Below, in pieces: positions 1,092 to 9,810 of a stretch of 9,810 nt of DNA. Origin of the DNA: Geosiphon pyriformis uo1 (taxonomy: Eukaryota; Fungi; Glomeromycota). Location of the stretch: positions 25,081-34,890 of the forward strand of contig JAAOMT010000649.1 in assembly GCA_016748015.1 (NCBI GenBank), given 5' to 3'. Made by a program: the position numbers and the translations under genes. Position 1 is the first letter of the stretch, and each line of letters starts with the position of its first letter. The notes under the pieces are model-generated. The model worked only from the letters and a program-made list of their open reading frames with translations, did not search any database and was not told the origin of the DNA.

Positions 1092-3683
1092 CTAAAAAGT
1101 AAGTTCAGCCAGTTTTTGGGCGATTAAAGTCTTTCTGGCTCTATTAACAACATTGAAAACACTACTATCACGGATAACTATAGCTACCAAGGAGTTGGCA
1201 TAATCCGAAAATGAAGGAGAAATGATATTATGAATGACTTTACATATAAGAAGCCTTTCTGGTAGATTAGGAATCTTAACAATAATACTAAAAAAATCTC
1301 TTTTTCCATGAGAACCAAAAAGCCGAGGCCTTTCAACCCAAGTATTTTTGTTAAGTTGAAAGTTAACCACAGACAGAGGATAGCCTCTAGTCAGCAGCCA
1401 AGCTTTAAATTCCTTAATATGAACCCAGTAACTGGAAAAATCCAAATTATTTCGAATATGATAAATATTTTCACCCTGAATCCAGTTCATAATATATTTT
1501 CTAGGATAAAAAGTCTGAAGATCAGTATATATATGAAGATTACATGGTTTGTTATAAGATTGGACCAAAAATTTAGTAAGATTATCAGACCAGAAAACCG
1601 AAATATTCAAATCTAAAAATATGGCATTATAGTCATTATTATCAGTGCATTCCAAAATAAACATAGAAGGAACAGCAAGAGACTGGTAATACCATATCCA
1701 GGCATTAATATCAAATTTATGAGGTTCATAAATAATGATAATATCATCCAAATAATGATGAACAATAGTGGACCCAAAAGTATTACCCATAGTCATAACA
1801 ATTTTGTGTTCAATAGAAGCACAGAATAAATTCACGATAATGGGAGCAGCTGAAGTACCTATCGTCAGTCCTTTGTGCTAGTGATAAAATGAATCTTCAT
1901 AAAGAACAAAGCTATTCTCAAGAATAAACATCATAAGTTTAACTTTAAAGGTCAACCAAAGATTTTTAAAATTTGAGTGATCAGATAAAAAAAATTTCAG
2001 CCAAGCCCAAATGCACTGATAAAACGTACGAATTTCAATATTGGTATACATATTTTTAATGTCAAATGTAGTAATAGTAACATAACCATGATAATAATTC
2101 GAAATAAGTTTAACAAAACTCATAGAATTATTGAAGACTATTGGATATTTTTTAATGTAGGGTTGCCAACATTTGGCTAACTAATGTGAAGCAGTAGACA
2201 TAATCCAAGAATGATTAAGAGTAATGGGATGAAGAACACAAGAGTTTTTGTGTAATTTCCATAATCTATAAATTTCAAGGAAACGTAATTCAGAATTATG
2301 TAAAGAAAAAAATATTTTTCGCAAGTATTTATGAGTATTTTTATGTTCCCTTAAGTCAGTGCTCATATAAAAATCAGATATATGATCCAAGAGCAATTTA
2401 GAGCAGTGCAAAACATCAGACACATCACAAAGCTTAAAAACTAAAGTGTCAAAAAGTAGCTTAAGCATTTTAGTGTTATAATGAGAATAATTACAAATAG
2501 TGAGATCCATGTTTTTATTTGATAGAACAACAATCAAGTCATGATTTATTAAAAATAATAAAACATCATTAACACATTCAGAGATATTAAAAATACTATT
2601 TCTATAATCTTTAAGTACATTGAAATTATTTAAAATGTAGTCGGATGCAAAGAGTAAATGCTGATTGAAAATTAAGAAGCTTTCTCTTTTCCTTTCAGAG
2701 ATTTTACTATAGGCTTTGAGGATTTGTTTTCTGATGTCTGACCACGTTTAATAGGTCTTAACAAGAAAGGGTTTCGAAATAAGTTGAAAGTTTGAATCTA
2801 ACTTCAAGAAATCTATAACAAAAGAGGGAATAATCACAGAAAAAATATTGTGAACTAATACCTTTGTTGATTTTTTGGCTTTGAGTGGTTGTTTAACTGT
2901 TGTTTTTGAGGCCTTTTTTTTCCCTTTTGATTACCTTGTTTTGCATTTTTCACTTTTTTGTTTGGAAGATTTTTCTTGGCTGGAGATGGATGAATCTTAC
3001 ATTTTGGAGAAGGTTTTGATACTAGAATCTACAAAAACAACCTTATTAGAAAAATATTTTTTCAAAACAGGCTTGTGTGGAATAGAACTAACCACAGTAG
3101 AACCAATGACCAAGTTCTTTAAAGCTCAACAAGTTTTAATGAATGTTTTAAACTCCTTAATTTCTTTATCAAGAATTCTCAGTAAACCACTTTTAGCTTT
3201 ATCAGAAACCAAGTCATCAGTATGAACTTTACTGATTAAACTGGCAACATCCAAATAAACTTTTGAGGGAGATTTATTGATGAGAGCATTATACTTAGCA
3301 ATTTTTGCCAATAGCAGATTTTCACAAGAACGCTTTAAAGCCACACAAACTTCACCAAGCATATTATCAATTATAAGTAAGTCATCAGAAAGAAATTGAG
3401 AAAGATCATAAAGAGGAGTAGGTAGAAAAAATTTTGGGTCACAGTTTGAATTAGCAACAATTTTACATTTCAGATCATCTATCTTATGAAATAGAAAAAG
3501 AACATGATTTTTTTGCTTTAGAATTTGAGGAAATGACATATTATTAAGATTGGAAGAACCAATCTTGAGTGCAAGCTAGTTAGCAAGCTTTTGGACAGCA
3601 ACGAATTCCCTAATGTTCATTAGGGGGATGTCAATGTCCATGTCGTTAGAAGAAATAGTAGATTAAGAAGTAGATTAAGACAT
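1092..3683 (-). pseudogene. Penelope-like element reverse transcriptase, endonuclease-deficient (Coprina/Athena-like), single long ORF inactivated by nonsense mutations
   Basis: Track ORFs 3126-3539, 2181-2537, 1878-2123 and 1092-1835 are all in one frame. Manual read-through from ATG 3683 to TAG 1092 gives 864 codons with internal stops at 3675, 3663, 3576, 3126, 2997, 2931, 2748, 2181 and 1878, and no frameshift. PLE-type motifs occur in order: VHNIFSVIIP..FLKLDSNF (cf. V.NLS..L..LL.KGL.F), IVVLSNKNMDLTI..Y..KMLKLLFD (cf. PADKG), IYRLWKLHK...LHPIT (cf. YGLPKIHK..RPIV), TFDIKNMYTNI (motif A), FILENSFV..FYH*HKGLTIGTSAAPIIVNL (motif B, Q..G.AMG), HYLDDII (YxDD at 1743-1754), IFLDLNI, YNKPCNLHIY and LLTRGYPLSVV (thumb). 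The ORF ends without a GIY-YIG motif. Confidence 0.88.
3657..3680. repeat. 12-bp perfect tandem duplication inside the 5' end of the RT ORF
   Basis: AGTAGATTAAGA x2. On the minus strand it encodes S*ST S*ST (probably ancestral SQST SQST). Confidence 0.7.
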
Positions 3684-3865
3684 GTTTGATAAAAAGTTAG
3701 AGTTTTTGGAGACAAGTATAAGATAAAAGTGCTCAAGTAAAGCAAATGGTTGTCTACACAGAAAATTATTTTTAAAGAGTGTTAATCTAAGTTTGAAAGT
3801 CGATGCATTACAACCACTCTACAAGTAATGCTTATATACTTGCAATCAAACATGAAAATGGGCAA

Positions 3866-6800
3866 TTATGGCAAATCTGTTATGGATTTTTTAACTATGT
3901 TATTGTAAGAACTCTTTTTACAAACCTCATTACTGAATTTTGAAATGGTAATATTAGTAGTAATGAGTATTGAATCAAAAAGATCCTGAATTTCATCAAT
4001 TACCTTTGACTTATATGATAAAAAAACTGGAGCTATAGAACAATATTCAGAATTATCTAACTTCCTAGCTATTACTTCTTGATTATTAAAGCCAGCTTTA
4101 CAATATAGATTGTGATCAATCCAATACATTTTTTTCTATACTTGATGTTCTTTAGAATCTACACAAATTGTACTACTCTTGATAGTATAACCATACCAAT
4201 TACCCATTACTGCATTAATAAATTTTATTGTAGCATTGAAATCGGGCAATCTTTTAGCTCTGGTCTTAAAACCAAAGAGTAACAATACATCTTCTCAAAT
4301 TTTAACAATTTTTTCCCATGATTGCTTGAAAGTCTTAGCCACATCATCACCAGAAAGAATATTCATATCATCTATATCTCTAAAACCTATTGATTGGACA
4401 AGATTATGTACTGCTTCCTATTGTTTTGCTGAATAAAATTTATGCAAATTGACTGAAGATGGATCCATAGATTCATGTGAATTTTCTTATTGCATTTTTT
4501 TTTTGATTTTTTAATTTTTTATAGCTTTTGTTGCATTGAAACCTTGTCTTCTAAAATATGCCAGCTTTCTAAAATGTTGTAAAAATTCAGAATTATTGAA
4601 TTTTTTTACAAAATCTATATTACAAAGCTTAATCCAATCATCATTATTCATACTTCAGTTTTGAATATTATCTTTGCCACTAATATCACCTAAAGCATAT
4701 GTTCTCCATAAATAATGACATTGTAAAGTCATGTTATCAGCAAAAAAGCATATAAGATTTTGCTTAAAAATTTCAGCTTTATTGAGACTAATATCTGAAA
4801 CATTTGCTATTGATTCTGTACCCAAGCTTTTATATTTTTCTCAATATTCTTAATAGTATGAGAAATTTCATTTTTGTTAAATTTTTCAGTATCTTCTGCC
4901 AAAATTAATTCAAGAGTTGCTCCAGTACTAGCAATAAAACTACAAAGAATCTCAGAAAAATATTTGGCCAATAAGCATCTTTCATATTCGACCTCAATAT
5001 AAGTCTATGGCTAGAGATAAATCAAGTATATAACAGTCATTAATTTTATTCCATTTACAATGCCCTTTTATAACAGTTGACAAGTCCCCAGGTTTCAGAG
5101 CAAAAAGTTCAGCATAAATGAGATCATGATTCAGTTCTTTGAAAATGCCAGTTTTTTTACTATTATAGAGAGAAATAATATGATATAGACAATTGCAAAC
5201 TCAATAAAACATTTGTGCAAAAGCTTCAGCATGTACTCTTGTATTAATATTACTTATTTCTATAACTGCATCAAAATGATTGGAAATTTCAAAAAAGATG
5301 CCAGCTTCTACAGTACTTGTATAAACCACACAATTAAGACCACTCCAAGTAGTATTAATATCAGCAAAGTCATCCTGCCATTGCTTTCCATCCATTTGGC
5401 CAAAATAAATTCGTGATAAAATGTGCGAGCCATCTGGTTTTTGTAATTTGGAAGCTTGGTTTGCCAAAGCTTGTGCTTTTTTGCATGAGATCATTGAAAA
5501 AGCAACTCGTTTACCTTTCTAAAGCATCTTAAGACTTCTATGTATAGCTTCTGATTCTTTATTTAAATCATAAAGAATTTTAATAGTCTCATCTTTACAT
5601 GGCTTATATTTGTTATCAAAAATTTTTATATCTCCATCTCGATATTGTTTTAAAAAGTTTAAAGTCAATTTGTTTGCAATTGTATCCATAGAAATAACAT
5701 GAACAGCTGATTTTAATAAATCCTGCATAGTATTTTCAGATTTATATGCATGAACTCTATTAGACATTTGATGTATAATAGCATTATTTTCATCTAAGAT
5801 AACTACATAAAAATGCCTTTCATAGAAATTAAGATAATGAGTACTTTCAACTTGGACAATAATAATGTATAGCTAAATTACCCTTATTTTCCTAATAATG
5901 ACATACATAAAGTTCTGAATTTTGCAATATTTCAACTCTAGCTTTAGTCTTATTGTTAAGAGTTTTACGATATGAAATCTAATTAAAACAAGGCAAATTT
6001 GCTCTATTTTTGGCTAAAAAATCGAGAATTTCTCTTAGTGTTTTTGTTTTGCTACTAGCAACAGATGAGCAAATAAGAGTTGTAGTGAGATTCTCACATA
6101 AGAAATCAGGGTAAGCTTTTGGTGCATCTTTCATTTTCTTTACATTAATGATTTTTTCAGATAATTCAACAAGTGGGTGTGGGTGTTTTACAGCATTGGG
6201 TAATCTTTTAATTAATCCCCACTTAGGCTTTTCTTTTGACTCAACTTTGTTGGATACCTTATTGAAACTAAGGCCCTTGTAATCTGGCTTGTATTGTTTT
6301 TGGCAATAATACTTAAGTATAAAATACTCATTTTTTTGAATAAATCCATAGAGTTGATTCTTATTATATTTAATATCACATATAGGACATTCTTTAACAG
6401 ATTGTGCTTCAAAGTTGATGAATCTCTTCTCAGTTCTTCCAATTTGGAGCCACTTATATTTTGCAATAACTAAATTGGCTTCCTCAACCAAGATATTTTC
6501 ATTATCGATAGGTTGGGATTCTTGTTTTATTGGCTCCTCTGGAAAAAAGATTCATGGCCAGATTTCAGAATAATTCTCTTTAGGTTGAACTAAATAATCC
6601 TCCAGCTTTTGAAATCCATTTTAGACTGAAGAGATTGTGGGTCTTTTAACTCTACTTTCTTTTGTCAATCCAAGTAACTGAAGATTGAAATGTTTTTTGG
6701 GAAGACCAATATCAATGAACTTTGAATAAGGTTCCCTAACTAATTTAATAACTTTTTCTGTAAAACCCTTAAGTTCTCTATAATCCACAAATTGGGCCTG

Positions 6801-7382
6801 AAAATAAATAATATGCCAACTACATTTATTGGCATTCGATGAACTTGTTAATGCAAAAGAATTTAAGAAAGGCATACAGTCTGGTATAAGACTTAATGCA
6901 TCTGCATAAGCGACTAAAATTCAAGACATTAAATCCTCATGAGTAATTTTTTTACTATCTAGAAAAGAAAGTTTAGAATCAGAGGGATCAGGCTTTTGTC
7001 TTGCATCAATATCAATTATTAAATGAAGAGGCCAATTTCCATCAATACATTTATAAGTATTAGGCATTCCATAAACTTTGGTAGAATGATCAATTACTGT
7101 ATAACCTTTTCCTGCCATCCGAATTATATATTGATAATAAATTTCTTCTGATCAATATGCCTCTAAAAGTGCCATATCGTTTCTATCAGTAGAGCTGGCA
7201 TGACCATCTGATGCAAGCCAATATTTATAATATGTATGTCCTCTATAACTAGATTTATAATCAAGATCAGTTAAACTCATGAGAAGCTTTTTTGCTTTAT
7301 TATATTCAGCCAATTTTTGATTTAGGCACTGTTGTTATAATGATTCATGTAGATGTTTTTTTGCTTCACTAGACAGATTCAT
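3866..7382 (-). pseudogene. AEP primase-polymerase (PrimPol-like) + Zn finger + UL9-like superfamily 2 helicase (replication origin-binding protein) fusion, about 1170 codons, disrupted
   Basis: Read-through from ATG 7382 (MNLSSEAKKH...) joins track ORFs 6921-7118, 6621-6875, 5979-6491, 5519-5767, 5201-5494 and 3866-4129 via about 14 in-frame stops and about 3 frameshifts (near 5868, 5005, 4823). AEP motif I is PLHLIIDID (DxD 7005-7013), motif II is KCSWHII (6813-6821) and motif III is FIDIGL..HFNLQLL (D at 6711-6713). CPIC lies at 6378-6389. Helicase motifs: decayed Walker A LICSSVASSKT (about 6045-6075), Ia *ISYRKTL, IIIVQVES, Walker B VVILDE (5789-5797), motif III ISMDT, motif V VYTSTVEAGIFF, motif VI AQMFY*V (cf. 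QM.GRVR). Confidence 0.85.
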
Positions 7383-7567
7383 TTTATTGATTTGTATATG
7401 CACGTTGTTTGATCTGACAAAAAGTATATATAATAATATTTTGTAACTATAATAACTAGTAGATAAATTTTTAAAATAAAAATTAATTATTCTCCATTTT
7501 TTTTCGGAATGCACTTTGCCAAGAAAAAATATAAATTTGATTCACAAGATTATTATATACAATCACG

Positions 7568-7852
7568 ATGGTATTTTATCATTGCCCATATATCTATAGA
7601 ACTGGAAAAATCTGTAGTCGAAGTAGTTATAGATTAGAAGAATGTTATGTTCATTGAAAATCTTCAGTATGTACTCCTTGTAGAGATTGTGGTGAGCTAA
7701 ATAGTTCTATACATAATGCATGCTATAAACATGTAGGCAAATATCAAAGTAGAGAGAATTATCACAGAAAAAAGCAGGATGAATTATGTGCAAAAATTGT
7801 TATGCTTGAGAATCATATATCTGACTTACCCGATTCTAGACATGAAGTATAA
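7568..7852 (+). pseudogene. Small Cys/His-rich (double zinc-finger-like) protein, 94 codons, one internal stop
   Basis: Manual translation: MVFYHCPYIYRTGKICSRSSYRLEECYVH*KSSVCTPCRDCGELNSSIHNACYKHVGKYQSRENYHRKKQDELCAKIVMLENHISDLPDSRHEV*. It shows C-x9-C-x9-C-x2-H and C-x2-C-x10-C-x2-H patterns. TGA at 7655-7657 is a plausible TGG>TGA change. Confidence 0.7.
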
Positions 7853-8025
7853 TTATATACTTGGCATATATCAATAATTTTTTGGATGACCTCTTTGAGT
7901 AAAGCTATATCCTCTTTGATCTCATTGATATTTTCAGCAATCTTATTACATAGAGCTATGGATTCTATAACCTTATTTTGAGAAAAATGACATTTCGTGC
8001 CTGATCAATTTCGTGTCTTACTCAT
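7813..8025 (-). pseudogene. Possible small coiled-coil protein, 70 codons, one internal stop
   Basis: MSKTRN*SGTKCHFSQNKVIESIALCNKIAENINEIKEDIALLKEVIQKIIDICQVYN... with heptad-like I/L periodicity. TGA at 8005-8007 is a plausible CGA>TGA change. No family recognised. Confidence 0.4.
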
Positions 8026-8175
8026 ATCTATTTTCTGATAGAATTACATTAACCACGACCTATTCAATTTTTGGATATAGATATACCAACTTGCAAATAA
8101 TTAATTTTCGATTTGAAAGAATAAGTAGGAATGTATAATCACAATCTATTTATCTAATATATTATCAATACGATC

Positions 8176-9364
8176 ATGATAACTGCCCAAAAAACCCGAA
8201 ACCCCAAAACTAATAGCTTTACCTCTATTTTGGATCAGATCCTAAATAAATATAACCTATCAACTGAATCAAACCCACTTCAATTACGTGCTTATGCCAA
8301 TGAGCTTGGTACTATGCTACCAGATTGGAAGGCTCATAAAGATGTGAAAGAGACTTTCCGTCAGTGCCTATTCAAAGAAAATCAAATAGAAACTCTTGTA
8401 CCAGACAAAAGGGGGAAAAATCTTACTGTCAAGGAAAGAGTTCGATATTGTGCAAAAACTGAAGATGTGTCGGATATTTGGTTACATGCCTTAGATTTAG
8501 CTGTCCCAAAAAATAATACAGATAAGGCGATTGTAGCAGCCAGTTTCTGTCTTTCACAATTTCGTAAAAAATTAGCAGAAGCTGGAGTTGATTCCGAGCA
8601 AATTAATACATATGCCAAATTACCAGATATTACTCAAGCTTTTAATCAGTCGACCTAAAACGCCTAAACACTTTTCCTTAGAAGAGGGGCTTAGAAGACT
8701 TCAGAATATCCATACCACTGAGACTCCCACTCTACAAAATCTTGTAGATGTGATCATGATGTTGAGCATGAGACCTGCTGAAGCAACTACTCTTCGCATT
8801 ATCTATTATAAGCCTGACGAATCAAATCCTCCGGAATGGTATAATTCCGATTACTCTTGGTATTGTACTGGGTATATTAAAAATAAAGGAGAAGCAAAAA
8901 ACAATTCTGAGCCTTGACTGTTTCTATCCATGGAAAAAAATTCAGAACATGCAAGAAAATTGCTTACCTGGATTCAAAATGCAATAGCAATTGGAAAGTT
9001 GCATGATCCTGTCTATAGTATTAATGAAAAACGTAGTACAGGTATATTTAGTAAATTTTTAAAGCCATATGGCATTACAGCTAAAAGATTAAGAAAAATC
9101 AGAGGTAAACATGCTTCTAGAGTTCATGGTGGTCAAAATCCAACTTCACAACATCTCACTTTCCTCAGCAGGATTGCAATGAGGCATAGGATGGATCGTC
9201 ATGATCCTGGAATGTATTATGCCGAGGGTGATACTTCCGATTCTGATCTTGACTCAGATCTAAAGCCTGAACCCGAAACTCAAGCTTTTATAACTAAACC
9301 AATTGATAAAAAGACTTTTACATCTGAAATTAAGGATATCTATGACTTATATGGGAATATCTAG
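8176..9364 (+). pseudogene. Tyrosine recombinase-superfamily protein, protelomerase/telomere-resolvase-like, disrupted
   Basis: ORF 8176-8658 frameshifts near 8641 into the 8588-8917 frame, which continues through TGA 8915-8917 (SEP*LFLSMEKN) into 8930-9364. Candidate catalytic residues occur in order: R in MLSMRPAEATTL (8771), K in CTGYIKNKG (8879), R in KRLRKIRGKHA (9092), H in IAMRH (9185), Y in GMYYA (9215/9218), followed by an acidic tail. The YR assignment is from motif order. The protelomerase subtype is inference. Confidence 0.6.
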
Positions 9365-9378
9365 ATTAGTGCTGTCTC

Positions 9379-9753
9379 TTATACACATCTATTCTGATCT
9401 GTGATACACTCGGGCTTTATCACGTACCGAAATTTAACTAACCCATCTAATGATTGGTGCGAACTACGTGAGGATATAATAAGGTATCTAGCGCAAAGAC
9501 ATTTTATAAAATTAACGGCAATATTTACTCGAGTCGGATCAAAAATTATATCGGTGGTATTTATTATCGAATTCATTTCCGTGGAACTTGTGAGGGAGTT
9601 TGCATCAATCCCAGGTTCTTGATGTATCACAATCTGTTCTTGTTCACGCCTCTGTTTTTTATTTCTACGTGCTCGGGCCTGTCGTGATAACTTCTTCGTG
9701 GGTGGTGTTTCTTCCGACGTGACAGCTTCTTTTCGTTTGTTGGTTGAGTTCAT
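9379..9753 (-). CDS. Hypothetical 124-aa protein with basic, NLS-like N-terminus
   Basis: Intact ATG-to-TAA ORF with KRK...KKLSRQARARRNKKQRR. CpGs are retained. It converges on the recombinase gene with a 14-nt gap. Confidence 0.6.
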   Translation of the reverse strand: MNSTNKRKEAVTSEETPPTKKLSRQARARRNKKQRREQEQIVIHQEPGIDANSLTSSTEMNSIINTTDIIFDPTRVNIAVNFIKCLCARYLIISSRSSHQSLDGLVKFRYVIKPECITDQNRCV

Positions 9754-9810
9754 GGTTATAATAAAGCGAATGCAGAGAAAAAATGGTCTTAATGTATTAA
9801 ATAAGTGTCT

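Follow-up and report, generated by a model that had tools for sequence, protein, structure and literature searches.

What kind of genetic element joins a primase-helicase to a recombinase resembling the enzymes that close DNA ends into hairpins, and are the two joined by more than chance? The question is raised by a 9,810-nucleotide stretch of the Geosiphon pyriformis uo1 genome (contig JAAOMT010000649.1, positions 25,081 to 34,890 of the forward strand; hereafter the window, with positions counted from its first letter). In it, a replicase pseudogene and a recombinase-fold pseudogene lie in divergent orientation with two small genes between them, separated by intergenic spacers of ~185 and ~145 bases. 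An earlier note, made from the letters alone, had read this arrangement as the fossil of an undescribed self-replicating element with a protelomerase-like enzyme. We find that the gene pair is a real multicopy mobile module and not a chance pairing, because the linkage recurs and intact relatives are under purifying selection; the copy in the window is a fossil, a dead copy. The features concerned are the following.

3866 to 7382, minus strand: replicase pseudogene with an archaeo-eukaryotic primase (AEP), a zinc (Zn) finger, a UL9-type superfamily 2 (SF2) helicase, and a C-terminal region (Pfam; tblastn of the homologue P0258).
6702 to 7019, minus strand: still readable AEP catalytic motifs, which we take to be I (DxD), II (SxH), and III (hD) (alignment A4).
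5789 to 6068, minus strand: Walker A and Walker B of the helicase (alignment A4; homologue alignment to UL9 chains of herpes simplex virus [HSV]).
7568 to 7852, plus strand: small Cys/His-rich (Zn-finger-like) gene with one internal stop (homologues adjoining the recombinase).
7813 to 8031, minus strand: small gene of 62 to 70 codons, likely a coiled coil, with one internal stop (homologues in related loci).
8176 to 9364, plus strand: protelomerase-like pseudogene with a tyrosine-recombinase fold (structure, Atlas features, profile alignment).

Recurrence of the synteny had been set beforehand as the test on which the proposal would stand or fall. Among 78 metagenome loci, most of them shorter than 3 kb (L043 and L056 alone exceed 6.1 kb), the replicase is reached in seven; where at least 1,000 bases lie upstream of the recombinase, the replicase is found there in six of eight loci, the misses being L045 and L072. 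The layout takes three forms: divergent, like the window (L035 and L038); tandem with an intervening Zn-finger gene (L011, L012, L013, and L019); and tandem with three intervening small genes (L043). Four recombinase/replicase pairs in named genomes were checked, chosen because the contigs of their two members had equal lengths; in all four, the accession numbers differ by one or two (two pairs from G. rosea, one each from D. epigaea and G. margarita; three species), and three gene models (P0112, P0273, and P0164) run from the replicase into the recombinase. Intact recombinase frames had dN/dS values of 0.16 to 0.25 in eight of nine pairs, the ninth pair having no synonymous change. Every species-named match belongs to the Glomeromycotina, both among 36 + 108 proteins for the replicase and among 90 for the recombinase; GTDB genomes and GenBank phages gave no relatives. 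The pair was undescribed in the literature searched, with Repbase, Dfam, subscription journals, and supplements outside that search; differently named, these elements may already appear in the supplements of PMC11075540 and PMC10640383.

The replicase reads from an ATG at 7382 to about 3866 on the minus strand, ~1,170 codons interrupted by at least 14 internal stops and three frameshifts, and a full-length Gigaspora margarita protein of 1,142 residues (P0258) aligns along it in four frame segments (tblastn). The fusion that the earlier note had recognized holds up, in that an N-terminal AEP of the clade of nucleocytoviruses and herpesviruses, a Zn finger (beginning at 6389), and a UL9-type SF2 helicase were found in one frame. 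The AEP was assigned on P0258 and not on the broken window copy: its N-terminal 316 residues match the AEP_C962R and Herpes_UL52 clusters at 0.97 (Atlas features), mostly from nucleocytoviruses. None of the Pfam AEP models matched replicase members by sequence. In the window, the presumed motifs I, II, and III lie at 7019-6999, 6821-6807, and 6719-6702. Motifs I and III of AEPs are also described in passages of PMC5862659, as are UL9-like helicases fused to AEPs in phages and plasmids.

Helicase evidence came from Pfam, sequence, and fold. The middle of the replicase matches Herpes_ori_bp (PF02399; E = 6.9e-8), a domain present in 19 of 22 replicase members; alignment to HSV UL9 chains gave E = 3e-12, and HSV UL9 was the top solved structure (Z = 13.6, root mean square deviation [rmsd] of 5.8, 325 aligned residues). 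Walker A (6068-6045) is damaged in the window copy, where the Gly of GKT is lost, and Walker B lies at 5800-5789. The best viral folds were proteins of ~1,000 to 1,200 residues, those named coming from giant viruses (for example, the Clandestinovirus PrimPol/helicase and the Marseillevirus origin-binding helicase). In domain order and size, the replicase resembles the fusions of Clandestinovirus, Marseillevirus, Bodo saltans virus, and African swine fever virus (F1055L), as well as the plasmid replicase family CyRepA1. In comparison, its identity to nucleocytovirus proteins is 12 to 23%, the match of its helicase half to CyRepA1 (NCBIfam; E = 2e-39) falls below the family cutoff, and its neighbor is a protelomerase-like gene.

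A replicase so similar to those of giant viruses could mean that the pair derives from the interior of a giant endogenous nucleocytovirus (asfarvirus-like), with segmental duplication or other transposons having spread it afterward. R. irregularis has a 1.5-Mb asfarvirus-related region and scattered polB genes according to parts of PMC10640383, and asfarvirus-related DNA in this fungus is also treated in parts of PMC7017919; a neighboring gene in L043 carries a 2C_adapt domain (E = 9e-4, below the cutoff), and diverged copies share the junction between the replicase and the retroelement to its left in the window. Yet the small genes are swapped among three layouts, and many genera have intact frames under purifying selection, which argues against such an origin. 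No giant-virus core gene (polB, RNA polymerase, VLTF3, or capsid) stands beside the pair, either in the window or in the open reading frames (ORFs) scanned from L043 and L056 (most loci being short), and the terms "Recombinase" and "telomer" are absent from the main text of PMC10640383. Scans of IMG/VR with alignments A1, A5, and A4, with P0204 and P0227, with the L056 ATPase described below, and with the L043 palindrome pattern recovered no locus; one of them gave a single tblastn relative, which came without a locus. We regard this explanation as very unlikely.

The recombinase pseudogene is broken by one frameshift near 8645 and a TGA stop at 8915 but retains R (8771), K (8879), R (9092), H (9185), and Y (9218), to which we assign the catalytic roles on general grounds; these residues are kept in 21, 20, 19, 17, and 17 of 21 diverse family members, respectively. 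Three methods point to protelomerases, as the earlier note had suspected. First, in a structure search over 48,161 chains, the top three were all protelomerases (TelA, Z = 9.3, rmsd of 15.0, 263 aligned; TelA, Z = 9.1; TelK, Z = 8.9, rmsd of 23.2, 226 aligned), followed by chains at 7.3 and lower, with lambda Int at 6.7 and Cre at 6.1. The TelA and TelK matches cover model residues 13-373 or 82-373, although with a predicted local distance difference test (pLDDT) value of 66.7 and rmsd values of 15 to 23, the orientation of the domains is not matched to TelA or TelK. The model has an N-terminal helical domain and a long linker helix on a tyrosine-recombinase fold, as telomere resolvases do. 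Second, Atlas features placed the family with ResT/TelK clusters at 0.96, with 19 of 30 matches in that set. Third, a family profile aligned to nine natural protelomerases, with integrases entered as single sequences and not as a multisequence control, gave E = 0.0019 over 176 columns spanning the linker helix and catalytic domain (hhalign). The conserved R, K, and R of the family fell in register with the catalytic residues of the GRR, AKKR, and KDSR motifs of TelN, and H and Y lay outside the aligned part. The nine-sequence protelomerase profile had a best E value of 0.045 among the 342 proteins of this analysis. The enzyme is predicted to seal DNA ends into hairpins.

Family libraries (Pfam, PHROGs, and NCBIfam) left the recombinase unnamed, and searches of Protein Data Bank sequences with recombinase profiles returned nothing credible. 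A profile search of the recombinase reached 569 clusters, of which the best 150 were examined. Eight distant homologues (P0186, P0204, P0221, P0227, P0237, P0241, P0242, and P0252) are intact and short (270 to 350 residues), ~30 to 36% identical to the fungal ones, and lie on contigs of up to 22 kb. In L004, a second gene directly after the recombinase (1596-2120) encodes just the N-terminal part of the recombinase and could be a regulator; similar second genes follow the recombinase in L029 (950-1071) and L031 (930-1420), where the contigs end or decay. Circular permutation was considered for these three loci and rejected, the apparent permutation being this second gene and not a circle.

Sequence around the pair bears on the size of the element. 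L056 overlaps the replicase-bearing L043 by 6.7 kb (99.7%) and contains an A32 packaging ATPase 8 kb downstream of the recombinase (Pox_A32, E = 7.3e-8, above the cutoff; 9057-9809, minus strand, one stop). The locus ends at the adjoining ORF (9831-10931, minus strand), which has a homing-endonuclease-like C terminus (PHROG 559; E = 7e-15). Because of this ATPase, a larger Maverick-like element is the likelier home of the pair, and a stand-alone element is doubtful. Putative cargo is frequent: F-box/leucine-rich repeat (LRR) or retropepsin-like sequence lies 3' of the recombinase in 21 of the 31 loci with at least 500 bases downstream. F-box/LRR genes follow directly in the tandem-layout group (L020, L028, L033, L048, L050, and L055; also P0273) and retropepsin-like genes in the remaining layout groups; L043 has a RING gene too.

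A stand-alone, plasmid-like element of 7 to 15 kb would need no virion genes: the replicase would copy it, a single recombinase-fold protein would both resolve and integrate it (by hairpin fusion or in a Crypton-like manner), and the F-box, RING, and protease genes would be its cargo. No ATPase is seen in 77 of the 78 loci, the 12.8 kb of L043, which reach from the replicase to the cargo, include no recognized virion gene, dispersed copies occur on many contigs in several species, and the helicase half resembles CyRepA1. However, the shortness of most loci means that absence of the ATPase says little, and the overlap between L043 and L056 reaches the A32 gene. Moreover, in the described systems, as far as the accounts consulted cover them, protelomerases are end-resolving enzymes, so that another integrase would be expected. 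We therefore judge a stand-alone element to be rather unlikely. Of the self-replicating element envisaged by the earlier note, the multicopy linked module stands, whereas a minimal autonomous two-gene replicon is weakened by the A32 ATPase, albeit in 1 of 78 loci.

The explanation that we prefer, and to which we give about an even chance, is that the window holds a dead, truncated copy of a pair that would replicate a larger, Maverick-like, virus-derived element and resolve its ends, the element copying as linear hairpin-ended DNA. By analogy, the pair likely works like the replicase-plus-protelomerase kit of phage N15, from which we infer a possible cycle. The element would leave the chromosome by excision. 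The UL9-type helicase would then bind and open an internal origin, where the fused AEP would prime and a host or element polymerase would extend. Copying through the ends would produce inverted junctions, which the protelomerase-like enzyme would cut and reseal as hairpins, as TelN does for N15. A separate integrase would finally return copies to the chromosome, where CpG deamination would kill them. Phaeoviruses, which have both a telomere resolvase and an integrase of its own kind (parts of PMC13236599), set a precedent for such a division of labor. In L043, two 55-base palindromes with A+T spacers (99-153 and 181-235) and three copies of an 11-base repeat (1-23 and 155-165) lie upstream of the replicase; the first palindrome has perfect arms of 16 bases, compared with a longest arm of 12 in 20 shuffles. 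Their shape presumably suits a UL9-type origin, and they are a candidate, in this one locus, for such an origin or for a resolvase site.

Several observations weigh against the Maverick-like, hairpin-ended element. The AEP portion of the replicase structure model has low confidence, and the recombinase model is middling. Foldseek ranks Cre first for the recombinase (E = 0.01), with nothing under E = 0.001, the hhalign probability to protelomerases is 14%, and comparisons of single sequences fail to tell protelomerases from lambda Int or Cre. Pfam ResT-TelK_cat (PF16684) matched 0 of 32 and 0 of 21 members scanned. The ATPase link is confined to one locus, in which other DNA truncates the recombinase at the 5' end, and the ATPase may belong to a neighboring element; the N-terminal part of the ORF beside it bears what we take to be a resemblance to the tail of a Maverick integrase, with no Pfam rve match. 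Capsid or DNA polymerase genes were not recognized in the scanned ORFs of any locus, two of which exceed 6.1 kb. The L043 palindrome is absent from all other loci and from the window, and the window and the sequence adjoining the recombinase showed no hairpin, no terminus, and no palindrome like the N15 target.

The Foldseek order and the missing target palindrome would also suit an ordinary integrase or resolvase that works on circular DNA as its intermediate, in which case the protelomerase look would reflect ancestry only and the element would be circular rather than hairpin-ended. The protein has ~400 residues, compared with 631 in TelN, and the long C-terminal part of TelN is missing; Polinton-like viruses, in parts of bioRxiv 2026.06.19.733378, often integrate by tyrosine recombinases. 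Still, TelA chains are also short (~320 residues in structures), and the three methods favor protelomerases across the N-terminal helical domain, the linker, and the catalytic domain. An ordinary integrase is thus improbable in our view.

The pair can be set beside several known systems. N15, phiKO2, and PY54 likewise combine, within a single replicon, a hairpin telomere resolvase with a replication protein of several domains (in N15, gp29 and gp37, respectively), and hairpin resolution by such resolvases is described for N15 and Borrelia in parts of PMC13685816. In contrast, the pair in the window is eukaryotic, chromosomally integrated, and multicopy, and it has an AEP and a UL9 helicase in place of the N15 RepA. 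No partition genes and no large palindrome upstream of the recombinase were seen, whereas N15 and PY54 have palindromes of 56 and 42 bases just upstream of their protelomerase genes.

Mavericks/Polintons and Polinton-like viruses are also integrated, self-replicating DNA elements, and the A32 ATPase near one relative would be a further likeness if it lies on the same element. In some of them, primase-helicase fusions stand in for pPolB and a tyrosine recombinase for RVE, and Mavericks are reported from R. irregularis (parts of PMC7805220, PMC11296320, and bioRxiv 2026.06.19.733378; for R. irregularis, also PMC11075540). The helicase here is of the UL9-type SF2 class, in comparison with D5/SF3, SF1, or unclassified helicases in the available parts of Maverick and Polinton-like accounts. 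Unlike in Mavericks, the recombinase-fold protein is protelomerase-like, and no capsid gene or terminal repeat was seen in the loci, which are short. Phaeoviruses of brown algae resemble the proposed element in being integrated in a eukaryote and encoding a telomere resolvase, and a linear phase with hairpin ends has been proposed for them; they differ in being giant viruses with several hundred genes, a capsid, and a separate XerH-like integrase kept alongside the resolvase, compared with only a small module here (all from parts of PMC13236599). Crypton, Glomhopper (DUF3504), Starship (DUF3435), and DIRS/Ngaro elements share with the window family a tyrosine-recombinase fold and an occurrence in repetitive fungal DNA (parts of PMC13465315), and cargo genes are common to the family and Starships. 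Unlike the recombinases of Cryptons, Glomhopper, and Starships, none of the 32 + 21 recombinase members scanned matched DUF3504 or DUF3435; the words "helicase," "primase," and "protelomerase" are absent from the main text of PMC13465315.

A broader proposal, which we put forward tentatively and hold to be somewhat less probable than not, is that arbuscular mycorrhizal fungi host self-replicating elements that have a giant-virus-type primase-UL9 helicase and their own protelomerase. Such elements would be hairpin-ended and linear, the first N15-style replicon among eukaryotic transposons, and would have spread F-box/LRR and retropepsin-like families across the genomes of these fungi. If hairpins are indeed made, the enzyme would count as a eukaryotic protelomerase from a source other than giant viruses, and fungal mobile elements would have a third means of maintaining their ends besides terminal proteins and circles. 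The link to cargo suggests how F-box/LRR genes may have spread, by a route open to testing. In practice, the module supplies two marker genes for retrieving and delimiting the whole element family. Many gene models annotated in these fungi as "hypothetical protein" or "origin-binding protein" would belong to such elements, and some would carry false introns drawn over stops and frameshifts. The G. pyriformis gene model P0004, 100% identical to the first 158 codons of the recombinase pseudogene, skips its two breaks as if they were introns.

Decay of the window copy bears the mark of CpG deamination. Relative to the two closest intact relatives, 31 to 32% of CpG cytosines have become T, compared with 9 to 13% in other contexts, and the replicase has a CpG observed/expected ratio of 0.17 and the recombinase one of 0.48, compared with 0.70 to 1.02 in eight related loci. 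Both genes delimited by the earlier note are real, but its reading needs amending at two points. The closest replicase relatives extend 96 to 126 residues past the point matching 3860, so the window replicase is cut at its 3' end, and a foreign sequence lies just past the recombinase. The features at the two edges are as follows.

1092 to 3641, minus strand: decayed single-ORF reverse-transcriptase retroelement, a neighbor outside the module (RVT_1).
9372 to 9390, plus strand: 19-base adapter, an assembly junction and not biology (perfect match).
9391 to 9810, minus strand: less-decayed piece of an element-associated ORF, joined across the adapter (tblastx to L024).

The 19-base sequence, which we take to be the Tn5/Nextera mosaic-end library adapter, had no match in 200 shuffles. 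In run X1, contig matches to the window end at 9371 and begin again at 9390, and a contig of run X2 joins 5881-6073 to 9484-9810; runs X1 to X3 are one sample, which may be the window's own source, and are not independent. Past the adapter, the CpG observed/expected ratio is 1.39, compared with 0.17 to 0.48 to the left, and the sequence matches L024 downstream of the L024 recombinase (tblastx, E = 2.7e-5). Because it is less decayed and matches in this position, the DNA past the adapter is probably from another copy. On the left, contigs with 19 to 36 differences span 3488-3922, with no loose end near 3850; therefore, several diverged copies share the junction between the replicase and the retroelement. 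With the adapter breaking the assembly to the right of the recombinase and the left end abutting a dead retroelement, the window holds neither terminus of the element.

The two small genes between the pair recur in related loci. Homologues of the Cys/His-rich gene, which has no Pfam family, adjoin the recombinase in L001, L035, L036, L038, L043, and others; homologues of the 62- to 70-codon gene, for which Pfam gives just weak coiled-coil matches, occur in L001, L002, L038, L043, L045, L047, and L071. A further feature precedes the recombinase.

8106 to 8117, plus strand: conserved 12-base motif, 70 bases upstream of the recombinase ATG (motif count over 78 loci).

This motif occurs singly on the plus strand in 29 of the 78 loci, as it does in the window, and lies 59 to 92 bases ahead of the recombinase start in nine copies measured. 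It is weakly symmetric and likely a promoter or operator, judging from its position and conservation. As a telomere-type palindrome it was rejected, scoring at most 4 of 45 with its own core symmetric; in the palindrome test, from which one copy too near a contig end was left out, 13 of 29 copies fell within the top 5% of their own locus.

Other repeats and insertions were noted among the loci. A 60-base repeat in L043 (323-382 and 4404-4463) precedes both the replicase and a small gene, and the near-identical L043 and L045 (1-374) carry different Zn-finger genes upstream of it, which hints at cassette swapping. L069 starts with a perfect 32-base palindrome at the contig extremity (1-32); beyond it lie tandem repeats of 59 bases and a recombinase gene that is truncated. 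Self-inverted contig ends in L039, L056, L069, and L070 were set aside as candidate termini; they lie beside truncated recombinase genes and look like other repeats, and the inverted-repeat pair of L056 is two short patches. A DDE_3 (Tc1-like) transposase is inserted 3' of the recombinase gene in L066 (1297-1979, minus strand). In the window retroelement, RVT_1 matches 1095-2747 (E = 5.9e-7), although the whole 849-codon frame scanned with Pfam gave no family; from its motifs, we take this ~850-codon element to be Penelope-like. Degenerate telomere-like hexamers lie just past its 3' end, at 885-935 (885-903 noted), and positions 1 to 900 of the window are A+T rich, with 12 to 15% GC.

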